Source: Promethearchaeota archaeon (GTDB lineage Archaea > Asgardarchaeota > Lokiarchaeia > Sigyniarchaeales > SOKP01). Taken from it: 64,000 nt of DNA. Positions 7,136-62,173 of the stretch are shown piece by piece. The stretch's first letter is position 1. Each line of letters opens with the position of its first letter. The DNA is taken from positions 83,736-147,735 of the forward strand of contig JBHLNS010000003.1 in assembly GCA_048941285.1 (NCBI GenBank). The letters are read 5' to 3'. The position numbers and the translations under genes are program-made. The notes beneath the pieces are model-generated. The model was not told the DNA's origin. It worked only from the letters and a program-made list of their open reading frames with translations, and searched no databases.

Positions 7136-10100
7136 ATGTCAAAAGAAGAAGGTAAAATTAAACAAGGCACAATAGCAGAGTACATGCGTAAGCGAACTCA
7201 ACTAGTTGGTTTTGAATTTGGTTATTGGAAACATGTTCAATATTGTGCTGAATTTATTGATAATGCCTTAGACGCCATTGAAAGTTTTCAATGGAAAGAA
7301 TTAAAAAAAACAGATTCTAAAATAAAATTCTCTTTGGATCAAGAATTATTCCTAGAAAAATTTTCTATTGTTGACACCGCTAAAGAAGAAAAAAAATCTC
7401 AACATTTAAATAATGGAGCAAAGCAAACATTAATGCAGGAGTTAGGTATTGAAATTATTGAACCAAATTCAAAAGATATTCAAGAATTAGAAGAAAAAGA
7501 GGAAGAATCTGAAGATGTAATTACCACGGAAGAATTAGAAGTAGAAGAGGAAGTTCAAAGAATAATCGATGACATGCAAGAAATAATTAAACCCGTTGAA
7601 AATGTAATTGATGTAGAACCAATAGTAGTGGTTCGTATAAGAGAATATGAAGCACCCTCTTTTTTAACATCTGAAATCAGTCAAAAAAATATTATGAGTT
7701 ATACATTTGAAATTTTTGATAACGGGACAGGAATGTCAAAAATTGATCTTAGAAAATTTGGGAGATATCTTGCTTCTTCAAAATCTATGGAATTAAAACA
7801 AACTCGAGGTAGTCAAGGTTTTGGTGCCCCAAGCGCTTTTAGTGATGCTCAAAATACAACTGGCAAACCTGTTATCACAGTATCGAAGTCTGTCGACAAT
7901 ATTTATGCAACTGTAACAGAATTTTTTACGACTTCCAAAAATGAGAAAAAATATTTAATTCACCCAACTGATATTGACAGCTTTTTTCTTCATGGTACGT
8001 ATATTAAACTAAATTATCTAAATGTAAAATATGTCAAAGGATTTGTTGAAAAATATATTGAAGAGACTGCATTTATGAATCCTCATGTCACAATAATTTA
8101 CATTGATCCTGAAGGGAAGGAAAAAATTTACCGAAGATTAGCTACATCTTTCCCAGATGAACCCAAATATGCTAAACCTCATCCTTCCTCGACAAATATA
8201 GGGGATCTACAAGATTTAATTACAAAATCAGAAAATAAATCAATTTCTGCATTTCTACAAGATAATTTTGTAAGGATGAGTTCAAAAACAGCAAAAGAAA
8301 TAGTAGACATTGCTGAAAGGGATTTACAGGATCAATTAAAACTCCTAATTTTAGAGGATGGATTTGTAAATATAGCAGAAAAGAAGACAGATGACATTAA
8401 CTTCATGAGATATGAAAAACGGGTTTATGGACGTTCTGATAACCCCAGAGACAAATTAATTATTTATCAAGTCGAATCAGAAGATTTAAAGGAGAAATAT
8501 TGGAAATTAGTCAATAATTATAACAAATTCATTAAAGATTATGAAAAAATAAATAAAGAAATAAAGAAACTAAATAATCGCATTGAAAAAACTGAGACTC
8601 AAAAAGAAATAAAAAATATTGAGAAAGATATTAAAAAACTCTTAAACGAGATAGATACTATTAGAACTCAAAAAGATAAAATCAAATTAGATTTGAATAT
8701 ATTGTTTAAAAATGCAAAAGAAGGATTAATTGAATTAAAAAAGTTAAAAAACAGAACAGATTTTGAAGATGTTCTCAATAAAGTTCTTATTTCAAAAGTA
8801 AAGCCAATTGAATTAACGAAAGAACAATTTAATTCTCTATTTCTAGCTTTTAAGTCTGTTAAGTATATGGCACCTCCAACAGATACAGCAATTCCCGTAG
8901 GAGAATCAACTCTAGAAAATACTTTAATTAAAGAAATCGGATTAAGAATTTCAGAAAATATTGATGATTTTGCAGGTCACGTTGAAAATGTTAACCAAAC
9001 CTATGAATTATTACGCGAAGATAAAAAAAAAACCCCATTTGTAGAAAGTAATGAAATTGATGATGATGCAATCAATAATATTTCAATACAGTCAGAAGAA
9101 GTTATCAATTTAAACTCAGAAATATTAGGAACTATTGACATTGTTGATGAAGTTATTGATCAAGAGCAAAAAAAGCAATACATCGATGACCTTATCCTTT
9201 ATTCTGATACTGTTTCCATAGATACATACCAAACTGTATTTGAATATTTCATCGAGAATTATACAAAGGATGATGATTTTGTAGCTGCAGAAACTAGAGC
9301 TCCCACAAGTGGGAAAGGATTAGCTTATGTTGTTGAAGCTGTTATGGCATATTCAAGAAATCTAGAAGTACCCAAACGATCTAGGGATGTTTTATCTAGA
9401 TTCGTAAATAGAACCCCAAAATTAAGAGATAGTGCAGACTGCGCAATCACCAAAGCAGTTCAATCAGTTAATTGGAAAAACTACAATCTCGATACATATG
9501 ATAATAATTTACCAAAAGGACCAATTAAATTATTAGTTAATGTTTCCGGACCTTTTGTACATCTAATGTTTAAATCCCAATCAAAAAACGCATTAGCTGA
9601 TGATGAAGATTTAATTAAAGAAATTAAATATTGCTTGGAAGCAATAGGTAGAAGATTGAGAATATACATTAATAGAAAAGCAAGTCTTCATAAAAGTGAG
9701 AAAAGGGCTAGTTTAATAGAAAAATATATACCACTCTTTGTTAACAGCTTATATAATATTGCCTCTCAAGGCGAAAGTATACATAAATCAAAGCTGGATA
9801 AGAAAGAATTGGAGGACTTAATGAAGAATGCAATAGGTAAAAAACCAACTCCTATTTTGAAAGCTACAGAACCAGTAGAAATTAAAGAAAAGGTAATTAA
9901 AGAAGAAAAAGTGATAGAAAAACCATCTGAATTACCCCCTGTTGATAAGGAGGTAGAATCTAAAAAAGAGCTATTTTCTGAGAAAACTCTTAAAAATTGG
10001 ACAAAAAATGAGTTAATTGAATATTGTAATGAACATAATATTAACGTGTTATCAAAAGATACAAAAACTACTATTATTAGCAGAATTATTGAATCCTATA

Positions 10101-10486
10101 AAAAACCAATTGAAGTAAAACCTATAGAATTAAAAGTTCCAGAACCTCTTGAAGTAGGTCTTGATACAATACCAGGAAAACAAGTACAACTGCCAATTTC
10201 TAAAACAAAAGCTTCAACTATAGTATCTCCTAAAAGAATCCCTCCTAAATCTAAACCAAAACCATCAAAACAAACCCAAACAACATTACCTATAATAACC
10301 ACCGAAAAATTATTAAATGTTTTATCTTATGACTGGCAAACTATTAAACATCTTATTTTCAAATTAAAAATTAAAGATATGATGGATGCTCGGTATCTAC
10401 AGCTTAAACTCAAGGAATTAGAACGAAAAGGACAAGTTCTAGTTGAATCAAAAATGGGTAAAAGACAATGGAAATTGAAAAAGTAA
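7136..10486 (+). CDS. top6B: DNA topoisomerase VI subunit B, unusually long (1116 aa) with several insertions and a C-terminal extension.
   Basis: GHKL/Bergerat motifs are present: AEFIDNALDA (N box), FDNGTGM (G1) and QTRGSQGFG. A KPHP segment precedes the H2TH region. Transducer-like segments include ETRAPTSGKGLAYVVEA and RFVNRTPKL. The gene sits immediately upstream of top6A. Confidence 0.85.
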   Translation: MSKEEGKIKQGTIAEYMRKRTQLVGFEFGYWKHVQYCAEFIDNALDAIESFQWKELKKTDSKIKFSLDQELFLEKFSIVDTAKEEKKSQHLNNGAKQTLMQELGIEIIEPNSKDIQELEEKEEESEDVITTEELEVEEEVQRIIDDMQEIIKPVENVIDVEPIVVVRIREYEAPSFLTSEISQKNIMSYTFEIFDNGTGMSKIDLRKFGRYLASSKSMELKQTRGSQGFGAPSAFSDAQNTTGKPVITVSKSVDNIYATVTEFFTTSKNEKKYLIHPTDIDSFFLHGTYIKLNYLNVKYVKGFVEKYIEETAFMNPHVTIIYIDPEGKEKIYRRLATSFPDEPKYAKPHPSSTNIGDLQDLITKSENKSISAFLQDNFVRMSSKTAKEIVDIAERDLQDQLKLLILEDGFVNIAEKKTDDINFMRYEKRVYGRSDNPRDKLIIYQVESEDLKEKYWKLVNNYNKFIKDYEKINKEIKKLNNRIEKTETQKEIKNIEKDIKKLLNEIDTIRTQKDKIKLDLNILFKNAKEGLIELKKLKNRTDFEDVLNKVLISKVKPIELTKEQFNSLFLAFKSVKYMAPPTDTAIPVGESTLENTLIKEIGLRISENIDDFAGHVENVNQTYELLREDKKKTPFVESNEIDDDAINNISIQSEEVINLNSEILGTIDIVDEVIDQEQKKQYIDDLILYSDTVSIDTYQTVFEYFIENYTKDDDFVAAETRAPTSGKGLAYVVEAVMAYSRNLEVPKRSRDVLSRFVNRTPKLRDSADCAITKAVQSVNWKNYNLDTYDNNLPKGPIKLLVNVSGPFVHLMFKSQSKNALADDEDLIKEIKYCLEAIGRRLRIYINRKASLHKSEKRASLIEKYIPLFVNSLYNIASQGESIHKSKLDKKELEDLMKNAIGKKPTPILKATEPVEIKEKVIKEEKVIEKPSELPPVDKEVESKKELFSEKTLKNWTKNELIEYCNEHNINVLSKDTKTTIISRIIESYKKPIEVKPIELKVPEPLEVGLDTIPGKQVQLPISKTKASTIVSPKRIPPKSKPKPSKQTQTTLPIITTEKLLNVLSYDWQTIKHLIFKLKIKDMMDARYLQLKLKELERKGQVLVESKMGKRQWKLKK

Positions 10487-17042: not shown

Positions 17043-19169
17043 ATGACAACTCCTCTTTCAACGCCTAGTAGCCCAATTAATAAAATTCAACGCTTTGAGG
17101 ATTTTTATCGACTATTTCAAGAAAGTCCGGGTATATATAAATATCAAGATCAAATTAATGACATCTATGCAAAAGGTGGAAATACACTAATAATACTATT
17201 TGAAGATCTATTAGCGAGTGATCCCGACATTGCAGAAATGCTTAAAAGAGATCCCGAAGCGATAATTGAGGATGCAGTTGACGCCTTCAAAAATTTGTTA
17301 AAATTTCAAGGCTTAAAATTAACTAATAAAGACTACTTTGTAAGAATAACAACGAAAGATAAAAATAGTCCCCTTTTTCTTCCTTTAAGAGGTTTAAGAG
17401 CAAAACACATTGATACTCTTGTTTGGTCTAAAGGGATCTTAGTCAGATGTTCTACAATAAGACCAAAAATTATAAAAGCATCTTTTGAATGTAATTTATG
17501 TGGAGCTCAATTCGATGTTATTCAGTTAACTTCAAGAATAAGATGGCCCAAATTTTGTACAAATAAACGGTGTAAGGCTAAAGCTCAGACAGATTTTAGA
17601 CTAATATCAAAACATTCAGAATTCATCGATTGGCAGTCAATAATGATACAAGAAATACCAGAAGATTTACCTCCTGGTAGAATTCCCAGATCAGTTCAAG
17701 CTATTTTAACTCATAATTTAGTTGATACAGTAAAGCCTGGGGATAGAGTTAAGATGATGGGTATTTTTAAATCAGTTTTAGCTCAATCAACTAAGAGCAA
17801 TAATTCTACATTATTTAAGACATTCTTTGATATCAATTTTATTGACCCTGAGGATAAAACTGAGGATATCATTGATCTTACCAAAGAGGATAGAAAAAAA
17901 ATAGAGGACTTGTCTAAGGAGCCTTTTATACAAAAAAAAATCGCAAGATCAATTGCTCCTGACATATATGGGAGAGAAGATCTTAAAATTGCATGTGCTT
18001 TAAGTTTATTTGCAGGAACAAGAAAAAAGAAACCTGGAGGAGGCTATAAAAGAGGTGATATCCACATATTATTTGTTGGAGACCCTGGAACTGGAAAATC
18101 AGAGATTCTAAAAAGTGCCATAGAAGTATCTCCAAGAGGGTTATATACTTCTGGGAAAGGTTCAACAGCTGTAGGTTTAACTGCTGCTGTAATTAAAGAC
18201 ACAGACACTGGTCAGATGAACCTTGAAGCAGGTGTGGTTGTGTTAGCAAATGGAGGTGTCGCAGCAATAGATGAATTTGATAAAATGGATACTGCAGATA
18301 GATCTGCTCTTCACGAAGCTATGGAACAACAAACTGTAAGTATTGCTAAGGCGGGAATTGTTGCTACATTGAAAGCCCAAACTGCAATAATTTCGGCAGC
18401 TAATCCTTATTCTGGAAGATATGATAGATATAAGACACCTACCCAAAATATTCGACTACCTCCTTCTCTTTTATCTCGTTTTGATTTAATTTTTGTGGTT
18501 GTTGATAGACCAAATCCAGCAGATGATGCACAAATGGCTGAATTTATATTAAAAAATTCTATGTTAGATCCAGAGGAATCAATGGATGAAAATGATACTT
18601 CTATAGCTCCAATCTCAAGTGATCTTTTAAAAAAATACATCAAACACGCTCGTAGAAATTATAATCCAATATTGTCAGATGAGGCTAAGGAAAGAATAAA
18701 AGAATTTTACTTAGAATTAAGGGGCCAATATGATAGTGAAGATGCAATTATTTCAATTTTGGCAAGAAATTTAGATGCCTTAGTAAGACTCAGTGAATCC
18801 TATGCAAAAATGGCTTTAAGAAATAAAGTTCTAAAAGAAGATGTTGATGAAATTATTAAACTATTTAAAAGATATTTAAAAGATACAGGTTATGATGAAA
18901 CAACTGGCAAAATTGATATGGATAGAATATTCGTTGGGCAATCCAGGAGCAATCTTAATAAACTAGAAACTCTAATGAATAGATTAAAAGAAATCTTTGA
19001 AGAAAATAATTGGAAAGCTCTTGAGAAATCAAATGTTATTCAAATTCTAGAATTAGAAGAAAATTTAGATAAAAAATTTATTGAAACTGCTCTAGAAGAA
19101 TTACTAAAAGAAGGAACTCTATATGAACCAAAAAGTAGCCAGATCAAATTCACAAACAAAGAAATTTAA
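17043..19169 (+). CDS. mcm: MCM replicative helicase.
   Basis: Zinc motif CNLCG..FCTNKRC, Walker A GDPGTGKSE, Walker B AAIDEFDKM and arginine finger SRFDLIF are all present. Length is 708 aa and no intein is visible. Confidence 0.92.
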   Translation: MTTPLSTPSSPINKIQRFEDFYRLFQESPGIYKYQDQINDIYAKGGNTLIILFEDLLASDPDIAEMLKRDPEAIIEDAVDAFKNLLKFQGLKLTNKDYFVRITTKDKNSPLFLPLRGLRAKHIDTLVWSKGILVRCSTIRPKIIKASFECNLCGAQFDVIQLTSRIRWPKFCTNKRCKAKAQTDFRLISKHSEFIDWQSIMIQEIPEDLPPGRIPRSVQAILTHNLVDTVKPGDRVKMMGIFKSVLAQSTKSNNSTLFKTFFDINFIDPEDKTEDIIDLTKEDRKKIEDLSKEPFIQKKIARSIAPDIYGREDLKIACALSLFAGTRKKKPGGGYKRGDIHILFVGDPGTGKSEILKSAIEVSPRGLYTSGKGSTAVGLTAAVIKDTDTGQMNLEAGVVVLANGGVAAIDEFDKMDTADRSALHEAMEQQTVSIAKAGIVATLKAQTAIISAANPYSGRYDRYKTPTQNIRLPPSLLSRFDLIFVVVDRPNPADDAQMAEFILKNSMLDPEESMDENDTSIAPISSDLLKKYIKHARRNYNPILSDEAKERIKEFYLELRGQYDSEDAIISILARNLDALVRLSESYAKMALRNKVLKEDVDEIIKLFKRYLKDTGYDETTGKIDMDRIFVGQSRSNLNKLETLMNRLKEIFEENNWKALEKSNVIQILELEENLDKKFIETALEELLKEGTLYEPKSSQIKFTNKEI

Positions 19170-19690
19170 TAAAATTTATTTAATACAAGTTCAGCTATCA
19201 TTTCAAAGGCACTTTCAACATTTTCACCTGTTTTAGCAGAAGTATATATAATTGAAATCGCATTAATTTCTTTCCCTAAAGAATAAATCTCTTTGTCACT
19301 CAATTCTTTTTCTAAATCAGTTTTATTAGCTATTAGTACAACAGGAGCCTTTTCGCAATATTGTTTTATATCGGGAACCCAAAAATGATTAATTTGATCA
19401 AATGTATTTTTTCTCGTTAGGTCACCCACAATGAGTACTCCTTTTGCTCCAACATAATAAGAACGTCTCATATTTATCCAGCGTTCTTGTCCAGCTATAT
19501 CCCACAGTTGAATTCTTACCTTACCTAAATTTTTAATATTAACTTTCTTGATAAAAATATTAGTTCCAATACTTGATCGATAATCTTTGGCAAATTGCCC
19601 CGATACAAACTTTTTGACTAAACTAGTCTTGCCTACAGCAGGTTCTCCAACAATGATAATTTTTATACTAAGTTTCTTAACTTTTTTCAT
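19166..19690 (-). CDS. Ras-superfamily small GTPase, Rab/Ras-like.
   Basis: G1 GEPAVGKTS, a switch I Thr (SIGTNIF), G3 WDIAGQER, G4 NKTDL and G5 TSAK are present. Length is 174 aa with no C-terminal Cys. Confidence 0.85.
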   Translation of the reverse strand: MKKVKKLSIKIIIVGEPAVGKTSLVKKFVSGQFAKDYRSSIGTNIFIKKVNIKNLGKVRIQLWDIAGQERWINMRRSYYVGAKGVLIVGDLTRKNTFDQINHFWVPDIKQYCEKAPVVLIANKTDLEKELSDKEIYSLGKEINAISIIYTSAKTGENVESAFEMIAELVLNKFY

Positions 19691-49759: not shown

Positions 49760-50131
49760 TTAATCTAATAATTCAGCAATTTTCTTTGAAACACTCTGAA
49801 TATTTAAAAAAACCATTCCAAGTGAAGCATCACTTTTCGCAAGAGTGCAGAGGATAGCATTCTCTCCAGCTTTTGATAAAATTATTATTCCATCTACACC
49901 TTCTATAAGAATTCTTTTTAGATCTCCACGAGCAAGTTCTTCTACAGCACGTTCAGACACACTAAGTATTGCAGCACTCATCGCACTCACAATTCCATCA
50001 TTTACATCTCTAGCAAGAACAGAACAAATAGGAAGGCCTTGAACACTTACTATTGCTGAACCTTGAATGTCTGAGTTAACGGCCTCCATCCGCCTTAAAA
50101 GATCAATGAGTTCGCTGATATTTTCGCTCAA
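49760..50131 (-). CDS. Roadblock/LC7 (MglB-like) domain protein.
   Basis: The 123-aa sequence GSAIVSVQGLPICSV..VSAMSAAILSVSERAVEEL..GDLKRILIEGVDGIIILSKAGENAILCTLA matches the Roadblock fold pattern. Confidence 0.8.
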   Translation of the reverse strand: MSENISELIDLLRRMEAVNSDIQGSAIVSVQGLPICSVLARDVNDGIVSAMSAAILSVSERAVEELARGDLKRILIEGVDGIIILSKAGENAILCTLAKSDASLGMVFLNIQSVSKKIAELLD

Positions 50132-51316: not shown

Positions 51317-52423
51317 ATGAAAAAATTAAATATTTGCCTTGTCTCTTTAACATTTGCACCTGATAGTCAAGATGGAGCAGCTAAATTCTTTACGGGAATT
51401 TATAATTATTTAAAAAATCATGGACATTATGTAAAATTAATAACTGCTAAATGGAATCTTACTTTTTCAGATCCTGACATCTATCAAATTGATATAATAA
51501 GAAAACGATTTCTATGGTTTCCACAATTCACTTTACACGCTAGAAATTACCTTACCGCTCATAAATTTGACATTATTCATGGAAATGGGCCTAAAGGAGT
51601 TTTACCTATAATTTTGTCTAATCAAAAAAGATTTATCTCAACTATTCATGATTTAGGGCCATTTGAGACAAAATTTACTACAATTCCTTTAGAGAAATTA
51701 TTAATTAAATATGTGGTTAATAAATCAACATTTATAACCACATGTGCCGAATCAATTAGAAAACAGATTAAATATTATATGCCTAATATAGATATTAAAA
51801 GGATATTTAACCTTTATTCGGCAATTGAAGAAAAATATAAACCCCTTCCGAAACATGCTCAGGAATTAAAAGATAAACTGAGTATTGAAGGTCCAGTTCT
51901 TTTGTATATAGGACGTATAGCAAAGTATAAAGGAATAAATGATATTATAAAAGCTTATTACATAGCAAAAAATGAAATCCCAAATCTTAATTTAGTAATT
52001 GGTGGTAAACCAGACTTTTCTATGGAGAAAATTTATAAAGATTGGCAACAAAAATATAAAGACATTCATTTTTTAGGCTTTTTATCAGAAGAAGAAATCC
52101 CAATCTATTATACTATGGGGGACATTTTTGTAACATATTCTTTTGCTTCTGAAGGCTTCGGGTTAACTCCTATCGAAGCAATTGCTTGTGGAACTCCTGT
52201 CATCTGCTCTTCAATTGGGGCATATAAAGAAGTATTACAAGATAATGCTATTTATGTCCCTCCAAAAAATCCAAAACAATTAGCGAAGGAATTTATTATG
52301 TTGTTGAAAGATGATCTTAGAAGGAAGGATCTTATAGAAAAAGCTCAAAATTTTATAAAGAAGTATTCATGGAATGCAGTCGGGAAAAAACTTGAAAGTG
52401 TTTATGAGAAATTTTTAAGTTAA
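51317..52423 (+). CDS. GT-B glycosyltransferase (GT4-like).
   Basis: The C-terminal motif is SFASEGFGLTPIEAIACGTPVICS. Length is 368 aa. Confidence 0.75.
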   Translation: MKKLNICLVSLTFAPDSQDGAAKFFTGIYNYLKNHGHYVKLITAKWNLTFSDPDIYQIDIIRKRFLWFPQFTLHARNYLTAHKFDIIHGNGPKGVLPIILSNQKRFISTIHDLGPFETKFTTIPLEKLLIKYVVNKSTFITTCAESIRKQIKYYMPNIDIKRIFNLYSAIEEKYKPLPKHAQELKDKLSIEGPVLLYIGRIAKYKGINDIIKAYYIAKNEIPNLNLVIGGKPDFSMEKIYKDWQQKYKDIHFLGFLSEEEIPIYYTMGDIFVTYSFASEGFGLTPIEAIACGTPVICSSIGAYKEVLQDNAIYVPPKNPKQLAKEFIMLLKDDLRRKDLIEKAQNFIKKYSWNAVGKKLESVYEKFLS

Positions 52424-53554
52424 ATTTAATTTAATTTCTTTTTGATTTAAATTTTCTTTTACGAAATTAAAGCAGATCTTATTAGGATTTTCAAATTGAT
52501 CAATTTTTTTTTTAAATGAACTTATCTTAAATCTTTCTGATGAAGGACCTTGACCAAGGATTTTTATTACCTTTTTCGATAAATCATTTGGATCTCGAAT
52601 GTGTTCTAAAGGAAAACCATTTTCTATTAAAAATTTCTCTTGGGGTGCAGATTCTCCTGGAAAGAATTCTATACTTGGTACATTCAACAAACTCGATTCT
52701 CTCACAATTGTTCCACCACCACTAATTACTAAGGCGCTATAGAAGCAAAGATCTACTAAATTCGGTAAATATTGTGTTATGATAACATTATTTTCTTTTG
52801 AAATAGCTTTTAATTCTTTTGAAAGAAATTGTTTTTGTTGTTGTGAACGGATTAAAAGGAAATACTTATAATTTGGAAATTCTTTGAAGATATATGGTAA
52901 AAACTCTTTGATTTGAGTCTCTTCTGGTCTAACTTTATGAATCAGATATGAAGCGTAAGAGGGTTCAGATCTTACTATTACATACTTTCCCCTTTCTATA
53001 TTAAAACTTTTCAGAATATCAGGATTTGGTTTATATTCTGAAATCCAAGCAATTTCATCAAGGCCATTGTACCTAATAATCTTTTCTGGATCTGCGTGAA
53101 GTTTTATGTATAATTCTAAGGGTATGCATTGAGGCGTGATAATATTTTCAATAAATGGATGTATTAATTTGCAAACAGGCTTATTTCGAGGTTCATCATT
53201 CATTCCAATCGAAGGAATTTTTAAACCATAAGCAATTCTAGTCCCTTCTATAGATAAAAAGGTTACGAAATAATCTGGTAAAAATCTTTTTATTATGGGA
53301 AGAAGTTGTGTCAACCGATCTATATAAGTTTCTAACTTATTTTCTAATTTTTCACCACCATGCCTTCCAATTTTTATATATCTTACGTCAGAATCATCTA
53401 AAATTTGATAAGTTGAATCATAATCTCGGGCAGTAATTAGTAAATCTGCATTTTCATTTTGAAACATTTTCCAGAGTGATTTAAACATTATTGCGGTTTT
53501 GGGTTGTTCAATGTCAATCCAAATTCTTTTACCAGAAAGACTCATCGTAAACAC
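52415..53554 (-). CDS. DUF354-family protein (GT-B/epimerase-like, archaeal glycan biosynthesis context).
   Basis: The N-terminus KRIWIDIEQPKTAIMFKSL..DLLITARDYD matches the DUF354 start pattern. SGGGTIVRESSLLNVPSI is a GT-B-like nucleotide-binding segment. Confidence 0.55.
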   Translation of the reverse strand: MFTMSLSGKRIWIDIEQPKTAIMFKSLWKMFQNENADLLITARDYDSTYQILDDSDVRYIKIGRHGGEKLENKLETYIDRLTQLLPIIKRFLPDYFVTFLSIEGTRIAYGLKIPSIGMNDEPRNKPVCKLIHPFIENIITPQCIPLELYIKLHADPEKIIRYNGLDEIAWISEYKPNPDILKSFNIERGKYVIVRSEPSYASYLIHKVRPEETQIKEFLPYIFKEFPNYKYFLLIRSQQQKQFLSKELKAISKENNVIITQYLPNLVDLCFYSALVISGGGTIVRESSLLNVPSIEFFPGESAPQEKFLIENGFPLEHIRDPNDLSKKVIKILGQGPSSERFKISSFKKKIDQFENPNKICFNFVKENLNQKEIKLNLT

Positions 53555-53669
53555 TAAAATGATAATAAGGTTTTATTTTTTTTTGAAATTAGTATTATTT
53601 TGATACGAAAATTTGACAGTACGCAGTAAGTAATATAAATAAAAATCCTAACTATCAAGGATTAAAAGA

Positions 53670-53963
53670 CTACTTCTCGCAAATACAAGGTTTAGATTTA
53701 CACTTACTGCACATATTAGGGTATTTTCTTAAAATTGCCGATTCAAGATTTACCCCTAATAAATTTGCTAATGAATTTGTCCAAGCAATAATATCCGCTA
53801 ACTCCTCAGAAGCGTTTTTGATGTCAATTTCTTTATTTTTTAAAATTCGAGCAAATTCTCCAACTTCCTCAACCAACCAAATAAAAGTAGCACTTAATCC
53901 TCTATCTAGGTCTTGTTTGAAGTAAAGTTCTTTAATTAAATTCTGAAATTCTGAAATTTTCAT
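53670..53963 (-). CDS. MazG-like nucleotide pyrophosphohydrolase domain protein with a Cys-rich tail.
   Basis: LVEEVGEFARIL and SEELADIIAWTNSLANLLGVNLE are the EExxE/ExxD-type MazG helices. The C-terminus is CSKCKSKPCIC. Confidence 0.65.
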   Translation of the reverse strand: MKISEFQNLIKELYFKQDLDRGLSATFIWLVEEVGEFARILKNKEIDIKNASEELADIIAWTNSLANLLGVNLESAILRKYPNMCSKCKSKPCICEK

Positions 53964-54013
53964 ATATATGTAATAATTATTAAATAATTATAATAAAAAT
54001 GACGTGAGAGATA

Positions 54014-54235
54014 TTATCCCCCTGCAGGAGTGAATAACCAGTCAAAAACATGAGCACGCGCTAAAATTACTATAAGAATCAGTGATATTGATAGAATTAC
54101 CGGAATAATTGGTCCCACTTTTATACCAACTGAACTATCTTGAAAGAATCTCATTAATCCTGCCCCACCTAATGGCATAGGGGCAGATCCACTTCTTCTT
54201 TTTTTACGTCTTGACTGAGTTCCTCTTGTTGACAT
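54014..54235 (-). CDS. secG: Preprotein translocase subunit Sec61beta (archaeal SecG).
   Basis: A basic N-terminus is followed by GGAGLMRFFQDSSVGIKVGP and a single C-terminal TM span. Length is 73 aa. Confidence 0.8.
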   Translation of the reverse strand: MSTRGTQSRRKKRRSGSAPMPLGGAGLMRFFQDSSVGIKVGPIIPVILSISLILIVILARAHVFDWLFTPAGG

Positions 54236-54390
54236 TGTTAAAAATAAATTAAGTATAATTTAAAATTACTTATTATATAAATACCTTAAAACATATAAAA
54301 TTTTATTTCGACATATAAAAAAAATTTTCATAAGTTTTTATTAATTATTTACATTACTTTTAGATAATTTCAAGGAAAAGTTTTAAAATT

Positions 54391-56280
54391 ATGTCAAAAA
54401 GAATAAAACCCCTTCTTTTACTCATAGTTTTTTCAATGATTTTTATGAGTATAATAATTATTCCCCAAATTTCTAATTTGGATTATTTAAATCAGGATGA
54501 TACACGGAATCTACAATTTTCAACTAGTCAAGAAACAACAGAAAACATATTAGTAACTTATGCCAATAGACGAGTAGATATAAATTTATATGGTGTAGTA
54601 AAAATCCGTGACATCTTGACTATTAAAAATCTTAACAATAATCCCATTAGTTCGGTTTTAGTGGGAATTCCACTTGATCACTCCAGCAAAATAATTTATT
54701 TTGAAAGCAAACGTGCAGATGAAAACACATATGCAGAAGAAAACACCTTATTAGTTGACCGATTAAACATGATTATGGATGAATTTGAAATGTTTATAAT
54801 ATATTTAGATTCACCATTATTACCGCATCAATCGAGTACAATTATATTCAGATACAGCTTAAAAGATGCAGCAAATCCATATATCGTATCTGAGGAACAA
54901 TATATTAACTATCAAGGAATTATTTTCCCAATTTTACCCTACAAAATAGAAGGTGAATTATTGGCATTTTATTTTTATCCTGAATTTCGTACATACGAAG
55001 ATGGCAATGATGAGGATATCACCGAGGATTGGGGCACATATAATCCCGGTCTTAATGCTAGAGAATATAGATTTGAGCAGATCAGTGATACTATTGGAGT
55101 TGCCTATATCGAACCTTTATTGGCAAATTTAAACGATAATAAAGATTTAAATATATGGTTTAAACATAGAAGTAGCATTAAATTGGAGGTTCAAGAAAAT
55201 AAACGTGAAATATTCATATCACCATGGGGAATTTTAAGAATCCGAGAAAATATATTAATTAAAAATTTAGGATTCGATTCAACGTCCCAAATTTTTTTAT
55301 ATATACCAGCTATTGCTTATGGTTTATATGTCTCAGATGATCTGGGGGAAATTTTAGGGGTTTCAATCACAGAGTTACCCGAAACAAACGAAAAACGAGT
55401 TGTAATTAACTTATTAAATAATCGAATAAGAATGTTACCTAATTCCTCATTTAGATTTGATATCGAATATCAATTACCTTTTGAAAATTATTTCTCTATA
55501 AATTGGTTCCAAGAGTCTATTGAAATTGAACTACTCACAACTACTTATGATTATTTAGGAAAAAAACAAACAATCACGATTTTAATTGATGGGTGTTTTA
55601 ATATCGATCATATTACTGATGCTCCAGAAGCGTTTAAAAAATCTCAAGGAATGGTATCGTTAACGTTTACCTCTGACTATGCGGTTCCAGGAGTATATAA
55701 AGTAATACAGTTTACTTTTACTATAGATCTGTTCAATCTACTTTTAAGACCTTTTATATTTATATTATTGTTTCTTTCTATTGCCTCAATTTATGTTGTT
55801 ATAGTCAAAACAAGAAAAAAAGAGAAAGATGTCTCTGCTTTGAAAAAAGAATTCATACCTGTTAATGAAATTCGCGAATTTTGTTCTTTATTTGAAGAAA
55901 AAAATGCATTAATCTTAGAAATTAGACAAGCAGAAGATGATACTAAACGAAAGAAAATTGCTAAAAAAATTTATAAAAATATTTTAACTAAAAACGATGC
56001 AAAAATAGAAGAAGTACAGAAAGAGATAATCCCATTCAAAAAGATGTTAATGGAAACAAATGAAGTTTTTGAGAATATCATAAAAAAGTTAGATGTGTTA
56101 GAAGCTGAAAGAATAAGTATTAAAGATAGTTTATCCCTTTTAGAATCAAGATATAAAAGAGGACGATTACCATCAAGAAATGCATATTTAAAATTATCAG
56201 ATGATTTCACAAAAAGACAAAGGAAGATTGATAGAACAATAGATAAATTAATTCAACAATTTAGAAGTTATTTATTATAA
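54391..56280 (+). CDS. Ribophorin I (OST1)-like oligosaccharyltransferase subunit homolog.
   Basis: Signal anchor is present. ANRRVDINLYGVVKIRDILTIKNL parallels the ribophorin I N-terminal block, and REIFISPWGILRIRENILIKNLG parallels the R-x-I-E-V-S-H-W-G-N-I..E block. YVSDDLGEILG follows, then a single TM span near residue 450 and a cytosolic coiled-coil tail, as in eukaryotic RPN1/OST1. Confidence 0.6.
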   Translation: MSKRIKPLLLLIVFSMIFMSIIIIPQISNLDYLNQDDTRNLQFSTSQETTENILVTYANRRVDINLYGVVKIRDILTIKNLNNNPISSVLVGIPLDHSSKIIYFESKRADENTYAEENTLLVDRLNMIMDEFEMFIIYLDSPLLPHQSSTIIFRYSLKDAANPYIVSEEQYINYQGIIFPILPYKIEGELLAFYFYPEFRTYEDGNDEDITEDWGTYNPGLNAREYRFEQISDTIGVAYIEPLLANLNDNKDLNIWFKHRSSIKLEVQENKREIFISPWGILRIRENILIKNLGFDSTSQIFLYIPAIAYGLYVSDDLGEILGVSITELPETNEKRVVINLLNNRIRMLPNSSFRFDIEYQLPFENYFSINWFQESIEIELLTTTYDYLGKKQTITILIDGCFNIDHITDAPEAFKKSQGMVSLTFTSDYAVPGVYKVIQFTFTIDLFNLLLRPFIFILLFLSIASIYVVIVKTRKKEKDVSALKKEFIPVNEIREFCSLFEEKNALILEIRQAEDDTKRKKIAKKIYKNILTKNDAKIEEVQKEIIPFKKMLMETNEVFENIIKKLDVLEAERISIKDSLSLLESRYKRGRLPSRNAYLKLSDDFTKRQRKIDRTIDKLIQQFRSYLL

Positions 56281-56292
56281 AATTTCTTTTAT

Positions 56293-56928
56293 GTGGAAGA
56301 GTTTATGAAAACTTGGCTATTTGATATCTTAGCATGCCCTTTGGATAAATATTTTCCCTTAAAACTATATATTTTTTCTTTTGAAAATGAACCAGAAGAA
56401 TTTCAATCAATTATTAACACTTATTTAAATCGAGATATTGAATTTATTAAAAATGAGGGTATTATAGGGATTTTTCATGAGGATAGCGAATTACTAGTCA
56501 AGGATAATATCAATATTGAAAAAATGAAACTCAAAAATTATCTTAACTTAACGTCCTCAAGCATTATTGAATTTGAAAATATTTTTGATAAATCCCCTAA
56601 CGATTTAAGCAAAAAATGCATAGAAATTATGAATTCTGATGTTAAATCAAGAATTCTCGAATTTTCGAGAAATCCTAATTTCAATCAGATTGAAAGTATC
56701 TTACCTGAATTATATTTTATTAATAAGATTAAACTTGATTTTGAAATAAAAACGGGTATATTATTTTGTAGTAAATGTAAACGTTGGTATCCAATTATTG
56801 ACACAATCCCTCAAATGCTACCCGATAAATATCGCGATCAAAAAAAAGATATTGACTTTCTGGAAAACCATAAAAATTTATTAGATGAAAAATTCTTTGA
56901 TCAAGATCTTAAACCATTTAAGATTTAA
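56293..56928 (+). CDS. Trm112-family-like protein with a large (~130 aa) internal insertion.
   Basis: The N-terminal strand LFDILACPLDK and C-terminal LFCSKCKRWYPIIDTIPQMLPD match the Trm112/UPF0434 halves. The ORF opens with GTG at 56293, with an ATG at 56305. Confidence 0.5.
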   Translation: MEEFMKTWLFDILACPLDKYFPLKLYIFSFENEPEEFQSIINTYLNRDIEFIKNEGIIGIFHEDSELLVKDNINIEKMKLKNYLNLTSSSIIEFENIFDKSPNDLSKKCIEIMNSDVKSRILEFSRNPNFNQIESILPELYFINKIKLDFEIKTGILFCSKCKRWYPIIDTIPQMLPDKYRDQKKDIDFLENHKNLLDEKFFDQDLKPFKI

Positions 56929-56976
56929 AGTCTAACCAATGAAGATTTAATAATTTTATCATAAATTTTATACATT

Positions 56977-57109
56977 AGCCCGGTGGTGTAGATTAATACA
57001 TCTTTTTTGTATTAAGCAAAGTGGCCAAGCATTTGGGGCTTTGAACCCCGCGACTGTGCATCCCCAGATGAGGTGTATAGCGAACACGGTTCGAATCCGT
57101 GCCGGGCTA
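56977..57109 (+). tRNA. tRNA-Gln (anticodon UUG at 57041-57043) interrupted by two ~30-nt putative introns at non-canonical positions.
   Basis: Exons 56977-56991, 57022-57054 and 57085-57109 concatenate to a 73-nt cloverleaf. It has the acceptor AGCCCGG/CCGGGCT, D stem GTGT/GCAT, anticodon stem TGGGG/CCCCG with loop CTTTGAA, T arm CACGG-TTCGAAT-CCGTG and discriminator A. Confidence 0.7.
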
Positions 57110-57225
57110 TTCATTTCTAATCCTTTAATATTAAAAAATAAAAGATTTAATACAAAAAATATTTTAAGCTTTCCACTGTTTTATTTATCAAAGTTTTAAA
57201 TTAAAATTGAGATAATTGGTAATAA

Positions 57226-58590
57226 ATGAACCCTCTAAATGAAATGAATTGGACTATTATAGAGATCTTGTTTTTAATAATTATATTTGTAGTTGGATTC
57301 CTAGTAACCTATTTAATCCTCCCAATTTTAATAAAGTTCATGAAACGAAAAGGATATGTTGGTATTGATATACATAAAAACTCTAAACCCAAAATTGCTG
57401 AATCTGGAGGAATTAGTATGATAATTGGTTTTATTGTTAGCTTTATTTTTTTAATTATTTTTTTTCCTGCATTTTTGAATCAAAGTATAATTTTTCTACT
57501 CACAGTTTTACTAGCTGGAGTGATCGGGTTTATTGATGATAGGATAAAATTGAGATCACGTTATAAAATAATTTTATCAATATTTTCTGGAAGTATTATC
57601 TTTATTGGAATGTATTTTGGTTTTATTAGTATTGATTCACCAACTATTCCATTTATTGACAGAACTAGATTAACAATAATTTATCCATTATTAGTTCCTG
57701 TGATTGTAGCCGTTTTTGCTAATACTGTAAATATGTTGGAAGGTTATAATGGTGAAGGTTCAGGAACTTGTTTGATCGCTGTTTGTTTCTTGTTTTTTTG
57801 TAGTTTGTTGTGGAATTCTGCTGAAGGAGTGATATTTACTGTACCTGTTATTGCTGTGATATTTCCTTTTTTCTTATTTAATAAATACCCCGCTAAAATT
57901 TTCCCAGGGGATGTGGGTACATTAGCTATGGGAGCAATGATTGCGTGTATAACATTATTTGGCTCACTAGAAGTTGCTACGTTTTGTGCTCTTCTTCTTC
58001 ATATATTTAACAGTTTTTATTATATCTATTCTGTGCGGGGCTTTTTTGAGAGTAGTGATATTAGAGAGAGTAAAGACGATATAATTTTACTTGAAGATGA
58101 CAGAATTAAAGCTTCGGATCAAAAAAGTGCAGTGTTAACTTTGCCTAGATTAATTTTAGCAAGAGGGCCTCTAACAGAACCGGAATTAGTAAAGAACTTT
58201 TATGCAATTTCATTAATATGTGGCTTCTTTTCCGTTCTTTCTATCCTGATAATGCAATATACTTTAGGGCACTTCGAAATCTACATCTTTATTATTGCTT
58301 TTTTTGTAATGTTAACTCCAACTGTTTTTATATTATACAAGTTTCCTAGAATAAGAGGAATAATAGTTTTAATGATAATATTACTAATTTCTATTTTATT
58401 ACTCCTTGTTTTTATCAAAGTAGTAATAATGGTACTTCCTATTGAAGATCTTATCATTGGAATAATCCGTATTCCAATCAATATATTAATATCCTTTCTA
58501 TTGATAATCCCTATACTTCTACTTTGGTATATATTAACTATAAAATATTTTTGGTCTGAAATAGATAAAATGAAAAAATTAAACTCTTAA
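57226..58590 (+). CDS. UDP-GlcNAc:dolichyl/polyprenyl-phosphate GlcNAc-1-phosphate transferase (AglH/ALG7/MraY-WecA superfamily).
   Basis: Motifs are GFIDDRIKL (DD motif), ANTVNMLEGYNGEGSG and FPGDVGTLAMGAMIA. It is a polytopic membrane protein with extra C-terminal TM spans. Confidence 0.75.
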   Translation: MNPLNEMNWTIIEILFLIIIFVVGFLVTYLILPILIKFMKRKGYVGIDIHKNSKPKIAESGGISMIIGFIVSFIFLIIFFPAFLNQSIIFLLTVLLAGVIGFIDDRIKLRSRYKIILSIFSGSIIFIGMYFGFISIDSPTIPFIDRTRLTIIYPLLVPVIVAVFANTVNMLEGYNGEGSGTCLIAVCFLFFCSLLWNSAEGVIFTVPVIAVIFPFFLFNKYPAKIFPGDVGTLAMGAMIACITLFGSLEVATFCALLLHIFNSFYYIYSVRGFFESSDIRESKDDIILLEDDRIKASDQKSAVLTLPRLILARGPLTEPELVKNFYAISLICGFFSVLSILIMQYTLGHFEIYIFIIAFFVMLTPTVFILYKFPRIRGIIVLMIILLISILLLLVFIKVVIMVLPIEDLIIGIIRIPINILISFLLIIPILLLWYILTIKYFWSEIDKMKKLNS

Positions 58591-58654
58591 AAAACTAATT
58601 TCTTTATGATTGAGATTTAAATCATATATTTACTAAAAAATCCAGGTATATACT

Positions 58655-61189
58655 TTGAAAAAAAGAATAAGATTTTTTTTAGCAATATCTTACCCATTCT
58701 ATTCAATAATCATTTTTTTACTTGCTAATTTATTTATTTTCAAATTCAATTTTTCAGCACTTCTAATTGATTGGACATTTATAATAACTTTTGTTTTATT
58801 TTTATTAACCGTTGAAGAATTTTATCAATGGGCTAAAAATGGTAAAAGAAGTGAAATGAGTGACATAGTGGCTATTTTTTTCTTCTTTTTTTTAATTTTT
58901 TTCTTTTCAAAAGATTTTCTAACTTCAATAATGGGGGCATTTTCAATTTATTTGTGGATAGGGATTTATGAATTAAAGGACTACCCTGTAATAAATAAAA
59001 TTTTAATTATTTCACTAGTAACATATAATATTATTTTTATTGCAGGATTATTTTCTTATTATTTAAATGATCCAATATACATTAATACCACTTTTGCATT
59101 TTCTTTTTGGATAATTCTTATTTTGGGATTTCTGTTATTTGGAAGGAAATATATTGTTGTTTGGAGATTCTTGAGTCCCGAATATTTAACTTTATTTCTT
59201 TATATTATAGCATGGTTAGCTGTTGTTTTTATAAATCAATATACTCCACTGAAGTTTATAATTAGTCAACCTATTAATTTGGCTGAATTAAATATTCTAG
59301 ATTTCTTTTTAAATGTTTACTTTCTCTTAATCATCGTCAATTGGGGGATTTATTTCATATCTGGTTTTATTTTAGATAAACTTCTCGGAATTCATAGATT
59401 AATGGATGATAGAGTATTAGATATCGTAAATAAAATAAAAAAAGATATTGGAATTAAAGGTAAGGTTAAAGTGGGATTTGGTAAATATCCTATTTTAAAT
59501 GCAATGGCATATGGCTCTGTAATTGATAAAAGAATTGCGATTATAGCAGAGGACATCAATGACATTCCTAAAGATGAATTAAAAGGCATCTTGGCCCATG
59601 AGTTAGCACATACAAAAGGTAAACACACACTCATTTTAACCTTGATTACAACGATTGATTTAATCATTAGAATGCTTTTTGGTATTCCCGCGACTTACTA
59701 TGATTATACGTTTGGAAATCCTCGTATCCCATTAATCCTTTTTATCCTACTGAATATGGGTATATATTTCTTTTTGTTTATATTTGTGAGAATTCTTGAA
59801 GGAAAAGCCGATTTAAAAACCAAGGAAATAGGATATCAAACTGAACTAGTAAAGGCATTATACAATTTAGAAAGTTTTTATGCGACAGGGAGAGAAATTG
59901 GTTTAAATACTATGCTATTATCTCGAGAAAAAATAACAAAAGACAATCAACTTTTAAATTACTTTAATACAGCTAAATATTTGAATCATTCAATGATTAA
60001 ACCTTCACGAGGTTCGCTTATAGCGAATTTTATCAATTCTCATCCCCCAAGTTATTATAGAATTGCTGCCATATTAGATGATAAGTTAAAACCTTATAAA
60101 GAAGCTATTCTCCCTTTTATATGTTTAAGAAAGTCGAAACAAAAAAAATATGCTTTAAAATTTGAGAAAGCTAGAAAAGATTTCAAAATTATAGCTACAG
60201 AAAAATTCAAGGAATATTTTAAAATTAATGATATCCCTCTTTTAATGGAAAAAATTAGAAGAAAAGAAAATTACCGCTATAAGTTTCAAAAAGATTATAT
60301 CTTTAAAAATTTAATTAACGATGAAATTTATCTCGGTAAACTAATTGATATCGATTTTATTAACGATATTACTGATCCTGAAAATTTAATTATTTCAAAT
60401 TTAAAAACTAATCAAAAAATTTTCTTAAATCCCTCGGAATATTCGTATTCTCTGTTTAATATAAATGATCAATACTTATTTCAGAAAAATGAACCATTAA
60501 CCTTAATTAATATTGAATTAAGTAATGAAAATAAAGATGGCTTCTATGTTTTTTCAGATAGAAATAAAAAACAAATTCAAAAATCTATTCACAAAATAAA
60601 ATTACCAACTCCAATTTCATTTATTAAAAGCCTTAAAGGTTATGAAATTTTTTTAAAAACTAAAGGAGTTATAAAAATTTTTAATTGTATAAATGTCATT
60701 CCAACAACTAATTTAAATAATTTTCAAATAGAATTATCAGATATCAAAATTCAAGAAAATACATTGAAATTATTAGTAGATGAATTAATTATTAGACCTA
60801 AACATATTTACTTTTCAATAAGCAAAAGTCAAAGTTTTAGAGAATCTGAAATCAATCTTATGAAATGGTTGGCACATAAAACGCTTCTAGTACATTTATA
60901 TCTGAAAAAGCCCGTAAATAATTTAGAAATTGGATATTTCTATAAAATTATAGACGATTTACCGAAAGTAGAGAATGATTTATCTAAAGATAAAAATAAC
61001 GATAAACTTATAATATTATTTAAAAATATATTCGGAAAGGAAGTCGAAATTCATTATAAAGAAATTGAAATGATAAATTTTGAGTATAACACCGCTCTGA
61101 TTCAACTAAAATCGGAAACAAGCCTATCGAGTCGTTTAGGATTTAAAATTTTGAAGAAATTCAAACCAGAAAGCATCATCATCTCTTAA
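58655..61189 (+). CDS. M48-family (HtpX-like) zinc metalloprotease embedded in a long membrane protein with a ~380-aa C-terminal extension.
   Basis: HELAHTKGKH is the HExxH site, and a downstream E lies in RILEGKAD. About 7 TM spans precede the site and 2 follow it. The start codon is TTG. Confidence 0.6.
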   Translation: MKKRIRFFLAISYPFYSIIIFLLANLFIFKFNFSALLIDWTFIITFVLFLLTVEEFYQWAKNGKRSEMSDIVAIFFFFFLIFFFSKDFLTSIMGAFSIYLWIGIYELKDYPVINKILIISLVTYNIIFIAGLFSYYLNDPIYINTTFAFSFWIILILGFLLFGRKYIVVWRFLSPEYLTLFLYIIAWLAVVFINQYTPLKFIISQPINLAELNILDFFLNVYFLLIIVNWGIYFISGFILDKLLGIHRLMDDRVLDIVNKIKKDIGIKGKVKVGFGKYPILNAMAYGSVIDKRIAIIAEDINDIPKDELKGILAHELAHTKGKHTLILTLITTIDLIIRMLFGIPATYYDYTFGNPRIPLILFILLNMGIYFFLFIFVRILEGKADLKTKEIGYQTELVKALYNLESFYATGREIGLNTMLLSREKITKDNQLLNYFNTAKYLNHSMIKPSRGSLIANFINSHPPSYYRIAAILDDKLKPYKEAILPFICLRKSKQKKYALKFEKARKDFKIIATEKFKEYFKINDIPLLMEKIRRKENYRYKFQKDYIFKNLINDEIYLGKLIDIDFINDITDPENLIISNLKTNQKIFLNPSEYSYSLFNINDQYLFQKNEPLTLINIELSNENKDGFYVFSDRNKKQIQKSIHKIKLPTPISFIKSLKGYEIFLKTKGVIKIFNCINVIPTTNLNNFQIELSDIKIQENTLKLLVDELIIRPKHIYFSISKSQSFRESEINLMKWLAHKTLLVHLYLKKPVNNLEIGYFYKIIDDLPKVENDLSKDKNNDKLIILFKNIFGKEVEIHYKEIEMINFEYNTALIQLKSETSLSSRLGFKILKKFKPESIIIS

Positions 61190-61204
61190 TAAAATTTAAT
61201 AAAA

Positions 61205-62173
61205 ATGAGTCTTTCAAAAAAGTTAATAATGCTAAGTAAAATTAAAAATATTTTTCATCTATTACGTGTCCGTCAATACTATAAGAACGTATTAGTATTT
61301 GCTGGAATTTTTTTTAGTCAAAGACTTTTTGACACAACTCTATATTTTAATTTATTGATTGGATTTATAATTCTCTGTTGCACATCTTCAATTAATTATA
61401 TTGTAAATGATATTATTGATATTAATAAGGATAGAAAGCATCCTGAAAAAATGAGAAAAAAACCTCTTGCTTCTGGAGAACTTTCATTATTTTTTGCAGT
61501 ATTTCTTTTGATCTTATTCGGAGGCATAACTATTTTGCTTTTAGTTTTTATTCTCCCAAATTTGGGGTTTGTTTTTATGATTGTTATGTTAATACTTACG
61601 GGGCAACTATATAATTACCTTCTAAAAAAATATGCTTTTATTGATATTATTATTTTATCTACAGGATATTTGTGGAGAGCATTAGCTGGATGCGCAATAA
61701 TTGAAGAATTTGTCTCTGCTTGGTTGTTTTTAGCCATCTTTGAAGTTGCTCTTTTTCTAAGTATAGCTAAAAGAAGAGGAGATTTAATACTGCTAGGAAA
61801 AGATAAAGCAGTTGAACATAAAACTGTTTATGATCAATATTCTTTGACCTTATTAAATCAATTTCATTTAATAATTGCAGGTTCATTATTCATGACCTAT
61901 TCCCTCTATTTAATTATAAAATTCAATTTATTCGAATCAAGTATAATACCTGGAAGTGCAACTCTTTATGAATATTTTTCAATTTTAACTATCCCAATCT
62001 CACTTTACATAATTATGAGATATATGTATTTAACCTCATCTAAGCCAGAAATAGCACGCAACACAGAAAAAGCTTTCCTAGATAAAGGAATTATAATTGC
62101 AGGGTTTATTTTACTAATTGTTTTATTTATAGCCTTTTATTTTGAATATATTCTCCTAATATTGGGTTTATAA
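61205..62173 (+). CDS. UbiA-superfamily prenyltransferase (decaprenyl-phosphate phosphoribosyltransferase-like subgroup).
   Basis: The motif is NYIVNDIIDINKDRKHPEKMRKKPLASGE (NDxxDxxxD plus RPLASG-like). The protein is polytopic. Confidence 0.7.
   Translation: MSLSKKLIMLSKIKNIFHLLRVRQYYKNVLVFAGIFFSQRLFDTTLYFNLLIGFIILCCTSSINYIVNDIIDINKDRKHPEKMRKKPLASGELSLFFAVFLLILFGGITILLLVFILPNLGFVFMIVMLILTGQLYNYLLKKYAFIDIIILSTGYLWRALAGCAIIEEFVSAWLFLAIFEVALFLSIAKRRGDLILLGKDKAVEHKTVYDQYSLTLLNQFHLIIAGSLFMTYSLYLIIKFNLFESSIIPGSATLYEYFSILTIPISLYIIMRYMYLTSSKPEIARNTEKAFLDKGIIIAGFILLIVLFIAFYFEYILLILGL

Follow-up and report, generated by a model that had tools for sequence, protein, structure and literature searches.

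Two 30-nt introns outside position 37/38 in a tRNA-Gln(UUG) gene of a Lokiarchaeia-type Asgard archaeon

The window, by which we mean the whole 64-kb stretch of DNA analyzed here, contains genes for a Ribophorin I-like protein, a Ras-family GTPase, a Roadblock/LC7 protein, MCM, topoisomerase VI, a HEAT-repeat protein and F420 biosynthesis. The Ras-family small GTPase gene at 19166-19690 (-) (E 1.4e-41) adjoins the MCM gene and a histone-deacetylase-family gene, and the Roadblock/LC7 protein is encoded at 49760-50131 (-); both families belong to the 'eukaryotic signature' proteins typical of Asgard archaea, and the gene content of the window as a whole indicates that its source is such an archaeon. 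For a topoisomerase VI B subunit, the ORF found here has about double the normal length; Pfam places the transducer domain at residues 712-856 and a weak GHKL ATPase match at residues 190-274, and detects no intein domain in this ORF. A glycosylation-type cluster at 51317-62173 holds genes for a GT1 glycosyltransferase, a DUF354 protein, the Ribophorin I-like protein, a Trm112-like protein and a GT4 family transferase, and further for an 844-aa M48 peptidase and a UbiA prenyltransferase. Ribophorin I is a subunit of the eukaryotic oligosaccharyltransferase. The 40-residue Trm112p profile spans residues 9-170 of the Trm112-like ORF, and the two zinc-ribbon halves are thus split by a large insertion. 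Within this cluster, on the forward strand, lies the tRNA gene that is the subject of this report. The features discussed below are as follows.

7136-10486: topoisomerase VI B-subunit ORF, 1116 aa
54391-56280: Ribophorin I-like protein (PF04597, E 5.7e-12)
56293-56928: Trm112-like ORF, 211 aa, directly upstream of the tRNA, a position kept in 18 relatives
56946-56953 (+): candidate TATA box TTTAATAA, read from the sequence, its center lying some 27 nt before the 5' end of the mature tRNA
56977-56991 (+): exon 1, tRNA positions 1-15; 5' strand of the acceptor stem, U8 and G9, 5' strand of the D stem (G10-U13), A14 and G15
56992-57021 (+): intron 1, 30 nt, at D-loop position 15/16, placed by its geometry and by empty sites in relatives
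57022-57054 (+): exon 2, tRNA positions 16-48; rest of the D loop, 3' strand of the D stem, anticodon arm
57055-57084 (+): intron 2, 30 nt, at 48/49, where the variable loop ends and the T stem begins
57085-57109 (+): exon 3, T arm CACGG TTCGAAT CCGTG, 3' strand of the acceptor stem, discriminator A73

The tRNA locus at 56977-57109 (+) reads AGCCCGGTGGTGTAG, then 30 nt, then TGGCC...CCCCGCGAC, then another 30 nt, then CACGGTTCGAATCCGTGCCGGGCTA. No other G+C-rich island in the 64 kb is as long; G+C reaches 63% in the tRNA exons against 29% in the window, and the GGTTCGAATCC of exon 3 is the sole perfect match to that motif in the window. When 56992-57021 and 57055-57084 are deleted, the remaining 73 nt are identified by ARAGORN as tRNA-Gln(ttg). 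The spliced product folds into a canonical cloverleaf with an acceptor stem of 7 bp, a D stem of 4 bp, an anticodon stem of 5 bp and a T stem of 5 bp, a D loop of 9 nt that includes GG, the anticodon loop CUUUGAA, a variable loop of 4 nt, the T loop UUCGAAU (GTTCGAATC) and a discriminator A. The anticodon UUG lies at 57041-57043 and the variable loop CGAC ends exon 2. CCA is not encoded at the 3' end, where TTC comes next. The original prediction, that a cloverleaf tRNA-Gln(UUG) emerges once two segments are removed and that the canonical 37/38 position carries no intron, was borne out on both counts by splicing in silico and ARAGORN. The spacers upstream of the tRNA in relatives are too divergent for alignment with the region of the candidate TATA box. 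At 57130-57153, 20-45 nt past the end of the tRNA, is an A-rich motif, ATTAAAAAATAAAAGATTTAATAC, that many relatives also have, nearly unchanged, after their tRNA. It probably serves the next gene, GT4 (AglH/ALG7-like) at 57226-58590, as its BRE/TATA promoter; a sequence similar to it, GATTAATACA, is present in intron 1.

The gene is not visible to standard tools in its unspliced form. Neither ARAGORN with default settings nor Rfam at gathering thresholds reported anything in the whole window, and Rfam at E<=10 on 56800-57300 returned chance matches and no tRNA, so the expectation that standard finders would miss such unspliced genes proved correct. When its intron options were used, as had been suggested as a check, ARAGORN did call a tRNA-Gln but modeled a single 58-nt 'intron' at position 35, which is a wrong model. 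We also rejected a match to the C/D-box sRNA sR4 over 56988-57038, which scores 15 bits in Rfam against a gathering threshold of 50 (E 0.63) and lacks C/D boxes; likewise, no C (RUGAUGA) or D (CUGA) box of an intron-encoded sRNA is visible in the aligned sequence.

To compare the gene among organisms, we scanned one genome per GTDB species with the anticodon-arm pattern TTGGGGCTYTGAACCCCG. The scan matched 37 loci, about 21 of which are Asgard tRNA-Gln genes (in Promethearchaeota/Promethearchaeia, Hermodarchaeota, Hodarchaeota and Sigynarchaeum MAGs), the remainder being bacterial chance matches. The tRNA region of the window aligns to most of the matched loci, best to the Promethearchaeia isolate ABR05 (L024), with 84% nucleotide identity over 5.5 kb. 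The gene occupies the same syntenic site in 18 of the roughly 21, in the conserved order Ribophorin I-like, Trm112-like, tRNA and GT4 glycosyltransferase; the upstream Trm112-like gene is absent at L002, L010, L025 and L029. The D-loop intron is present in 15 of these genes, as is the variable-loop/T-stem intron, and the 37/38 position is empty in all of them. Their intron content varies from none to three, as listed here.

Both introns: 12 loci and the window
Both introns and a third in the T loop (59/60): L006:3627-3788 and L032:1107-1268
D-loop and T-loop introns only: L012:2882-3013
T-loop intron only: L016:5715-5816
Variable-region intron only: L011:957-1059
A different D-arm intron (21/22) only: L010:7459-7559
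No intron: L002:336-408 and L029:1533-1605

Four intron sites are thus found in Asgard tRNA-Gln(UUG), 15/16, 21/22, 48/49 and 59/60, and the introns are all 28-31 nt long with the same architecture. The two intron-less genes, to which the spliced product of the window is near-identical, score 60 (L002) and 59.7 bits (L029) on the Rfam tRNA model RF00005. A tRNA-Gln(CUG) gene in an uncultured archaeon MAG (L025:1098-1200) shares the exon framework and has a 30-nt variable-region insert of different sequence, whose BHB register is less clear (H 3/4, h' 3); it scores 50.6 bits on the Rfam tRNA model and is missed by ARAGORN.

The empty sites fix the intron boundaries. Where the D-loop insert is absent the genes read GTGTAG/TGGCC (L011, L016), the slash marking the empty site, and where the variable-region insert is absent they read CGAC/CACGG (L010, L012, L016); because these orthologs read exactly these junctions, the introns are fixed at 56992-57021 and 57055-57084. 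Judged from the window alone, an AG repeat would let the boundaries of intron 1 shift by as much as 2 nt, and in relatives whose intron 1 ends in AA the mature sequence permits only a boundary of the 56992-57021 type. The boundaries first proposed, then considered ambiguous by 1-2 nt, are therefore the right ones.

The structure around each junction was examined in the splicing register described for archaeal introns, in which four exon nucleotides, two bases upstream of the 5' cut, pair with four intron nucleotides, likewise two bases upstream of the 3' cut, to form the central helix H (PMC4090602). In intron 1, H joins exon 56987-56989 (U11 G12 U13) with intron 57016-57018 through the pairs U11-A, G12-C and U13-G, and the fourth position, G10/A, is mismatched, so that three of four pairs form. 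The 5' bulge is A56990 G56991 / A56992 (A14 G15 / A, the slash marking the cut), the inner helix h' has 8 bp (56993-57000 with 57008-57015, UUAAUACA/UGUAUUAA), and the 3' splice-site nucleotides are A57020 G57021 / U57022 with no closing outer helix. In intron 2, H joins exon 57049-57051 (C42 G43 C44) with intron 57080-57082 through C42-G, G43-C and C44-G, G45/A is mismatched, and again three of four pairs form; the 5' bulge is A57053 C57054 / U57055 (A46 C48 / U), and h' has 7 bp (GUGCAUC/GGUGUAU, 57056-57062 with 57072-57078). A strict hBHBh' motif is found in neither intron, the outer helix having 0 bp and one of the four H pairs being mismatched, but both have the relaxed HBh' form, with H, a 3-nt bulge cut after its second nucleotide, and h'. 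This confirms the earlier reading of a relaxed bulge-helix-bulge, with several corrections of detail. The pairing of exon TGT with intron GCA and the 5' bulge AGA at intron 1 stand, and the 3' bulge, given as AAG, was one base off; the hairpin described as a 7-bp TTAATAC/GTATTAA is real and is 8 bp long. The small CATC/GATG hairpin proposed for intron 2 does not hold, being paired in 57% of cells across relatives versus 93% for GUGCAUC/GGUGUAU.

Among 127,880 possible 30-nt excisions on both strands of the window, 35 (2.7e-4) combine, in the splicing register, three or more of the four H pairs with an h' of 7 bp or longer. Both inserts show this combination at the boundaries given by other genomes, which rules out a chance match. 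A BHB scan run on the locus without constraints yields many spurious candidates with equal scores, and it is only by coinciding with independently established boundaries that the motif gains meaning. The same geometry is found at the 21/22 and 59/60 introns of relatives, and the 59/60 intron has the full hBHBh', its outer helix supplied by the T stem. Some observations count against the junction models. The minimum free energy fold of the single sequence, at -49.3 kcal/mol, differs from the splicing-competent models at -36.7 to -39.9 kcal/mol, the H of intron 2 requires the top two anticodon-stem pairs to open, and RNAalifold favors another register for the invariant bases of that helix. Because folding the single sequence does not give a splicing-competent structure, we relied on comparative evidence. 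Folding the precursor had been recommended as a check; in its comparative form, RNAalifold on 12 full precursors, it recovers de novo both h' helices together with the stems of the acceptor, anticodon and T arms.

The helices of the motif are kept in evolution. In 16 sequences the h' of intron 1 is 100% paired, with one compensatory change (UA to CG) and two one-sided changes, and the three pairs of its H are also 100% paired, with seven intron-side transitions that are all compatible with the fixed exon base; the fourth H position forms no pair in 14 of the 16. In the same number of sequences the h' of intron 2 is 93% paired and three of its pairs are altered on both sides, the three H pairs are conserved, and all three substitutions at the fourth position give a pair with G45. 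With the pairing partners shifted by 1-3 columns, the share of paired cells in intron 1 is 32-58% instead of 92.7%, and in intron 2 it is 12-56% instead of 87.9%. These figures should be read with the caveat that intron 1 has one double change only and that shuffle controls are weak for related sequences. The non-canonical positions of the two introns, in the D loop and at the junction of the variable loop and T arm, are thus established as originally proposed by the empty-site orthologs, the junction geometry and the covariation.

These same observations bear on the possibility that the segments are retained in the mature molecule, which would then be an expanded tRNA with an extra D-loop hairpin and a very long variable arm. 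Both inserts do form stable hairpins, the second one lies where class II tRNAs have their long variable arm, and the Rfam tRNA model tolerates the variable-region insert of the L025 gene. A retained arm, however, gives no reason for the complementarity between intron 3' end and exon in the exact BHB register at four sites, and orthologs without either insert are otherwise identical. It would also imply a 30-nt D-loop insertion and a 34-nt variable region; we know of no such D-loop insertion in a functional cytosolic tRNA, and to our knowledge a variable region of that length would exceed known class II arms. We consider retention highly improbable.

The locus could also be a pseudogene, that is, a tRNA-Gln gene inactivated by two small inverted-repeat insertions. 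The inserts are short, contain inverted repeats and are A+T-rich like the surrounding DNA, and default gene finders reject the locus. Against this, the exons are nearly invariant and the helices are kept across 16 species-level genomes in which the flanking DNA is 63-84% identical and the intron loops have diverged. Exon 1 is invariant in the 16 relatives, exon 2 is invariant except at position 16 (U or C), and the differences between the acceptor and T stems and those of the intron-less L002 and L029 are compensatory. No other copy of the intron-1 stem, nor any further copy of the inserts, was found in the window or in the loci of relatives, and no species-representative assembly has more than one match to the anticodon arm. 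Furthermore, CAA is the dominant glutamine codon in the window genes (465 versus 86 for CAG). A pseudogene is in our judgment extremely improbable. A T-loop motif search found no other tRNA-like T loop in the window and no further hidden tRNA in the loci of relatives, and the window, the scan and the codon data are all compatible with this tRNA, which probably decodes the main glutamine codon CAA, being the only decoder of that codon; it may be so, and the gene would then be essential.

On this evidence, 56977-57109 is very probably a functional Promethearchaeia (Lokiarchaeia-type) tRNA-Gln(UUG) gene with two protein-spliced 30-nt introns, at 15/16 and 48/49, in the relaxed HBh' form. The gene would be transcribed into the 133-nt precursor plus leader and trailer, in which the exon upstream of each 5' splice site would pair with the 3' end of the intron to form H, followed by the 3-nt bulge and then h'. 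A broad-specificity EndA would cleave each site behind the second nucleotide of the bulge, the exons would be sealed by an RtcB-type ligase, and CCA would be added after splicing, yielding a 73-nt tRNA with CCA that decodes CAA. Neither an EndA nor an RtcB domain turned up in 44 ORFs of the window, which counts against the scheme, and the splicing machinery is for this reason assumed from what relatives and published work show. An (alpha-beta)2 EndA with an L1 loop linked to the cleavage of relaxed motifs is reported from Asgard genomes, among them a Lokiarchaeota MAG (PMC5829648). With the outer helix absent and three of four H pairs, the homotetrameric or homodimeric euryarchaeal EndA is not expected to cut here (PMC5829648).

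A last alternative is that the introns are real but are removed by self-splicing or by another nuclease, instead of by EndA acting on a BHB-like motif. It would account for the missing strict motif and would agree with the lack of an EndA gene in the window, but a group I or group II ribozyme needs far more than 30 nt, HBh' and hBH are the usual junction forms of non-canonical archaeal introns and the geometry fits the former (PMC4090602), and the Asgard EndA is reported to be of the broad-specificity type (PMC5829648). The chance that removal takes such a route appears extremely small. What makes all three alternatives unlikely is that the complementarity is register-specific at each of four sites, that the exons are invariant and that the introns measure 30 nt.

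The variation among relatives also offers a view of how the introns may come and go. Going by a rough NJ tree built from the upstream Trm112-like protein, the D-loop and variable-region introns could be ancestral in the clade, with later losses and with T-loop gains. Three of the four insertion sites lie directly after a palindromic tetranucleotide, CGCG (57049-57052 in the window), UCGA in the T loop (TTCGAA) of L016, L012 and L006, and GGCC in the D loop of L010. Because the exon tetranucleotide is self-complementary, the 3' end of the intron resembles a direct repeat of the exon (GCGA...GCGA; TCGAA...TCGAA), and at a palindromic site any inserted copy of local sequence would automatically create H. 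The exon-like repeat may be a trivial consequence of pairing or may be a hint at intron gain. We think it rather unlikely that these 28-31-nt mini-introns are an actively turning-over intron population in Loki-type Asgard archaea. If gain at palindromic sites did occur, by local duplication or by endonuclease-mediated reverse splicing, the genes would be a tractable system for the origin of protein-spliced introns in the closest archaeal relatives of eukaryotes. An extra 1.2-1.6 kb of DNA lies between the tRNA and the GT4 gene at L006:3789-5000, L032:1269-2610 and L012:3014-4660, that is, in the three relatives that have a T-loop and a D-loop intron together; L016, which has the T-loop intron, lacks it. 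The extra DNA of L006 contains a 141-aa ORF with a weak winged-helix match and a 111-aa Cys-rich ORF, and a search for an integrase in that of L006 and L012 found none, only small ORFs.

The practical consequence is that a tRNA-Gln(UUG) gene invisible to ARAGORN and to the Rfam tRNA model would lead an intron-unaware annotation to show, wrongly, a genome without tRNA-Gln(UUG). The gene extends the published picture of intron-rich Asgard tRNA genes to a Promethearchaeia/Lokiarchaeia-type lineage, and it provides a comparative series in which one syntenic gene carries from zero to three introns at four sites, with the splice junctions fixed without experiments. No new mechanism is revealed by it.

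The canonical archaeal intron at 37/38 has a strict hBHBh' motif with a 4-bp H and 3-nt bulges (Marck and Grosjean 2003; Xue et al. 2006; PMC4090602). The introns described here are like it in that H forms between the exon upstream of the cut and the 3' end of the intron and in that the splice sites lie in 3-nt bulges, and the chemistry of their removal is presumed to be the same; they differ in their positions, 15/16 and 48/49, in the absence of the outer helix and in having three of four H pairs. In Thermoproteales, tRNA genes with several non-canonical introns are well known (PMC4033280); an example is the Pyrobaculum tRNA-Pro(UGG), interrupted at 25/26, 37/38 and 56/57 (Sugahara et al. 2007/2008, as covered by the reviews PMC4090602 and PMC4033280). 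As in our genes, these are short protein-spliced introns outside 37/38, up to three per gene and often HBh' or hBH, whose presence differs between related species; their removal requires an (alpha-beta)2 endonuclease that has a specific loop. Unlike in Thermoproteales, the host here is an Asgard archaeon with 29% G+C, intron size is uniform (28-31 nt over the four sites), and 37/38 is empty in all of the roughly 21 Asgard tRNA-Gln orthologs. The closest published case is found in Atabeyarchaeia and Freyarchaeia, where 92-95% of tRNA genes are interrupted, often more than once and at non-canonical positions (Valentin-Alvarado et al. 2024, PMC11291895). Supplementary Data 4 of that study contains a 138-nt tRNA-Gln(TTG) with two introns, found by tRNAscan-SE, and we read the table coordinates as placing the first intron in the D loop, after nucleotide 17, and the other one close to the T loop. 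This gene belongs to the same superphylum and has two introns, as in the window, but the class here is Promethearchaeia-like and the second intron lies at 48/49, whereas theirs lies near the T loop. Because multi-intron tRNA genes have been published for both Thermoproteales and Asgard archaea, the tRNA-Gln locus is of an already known type.
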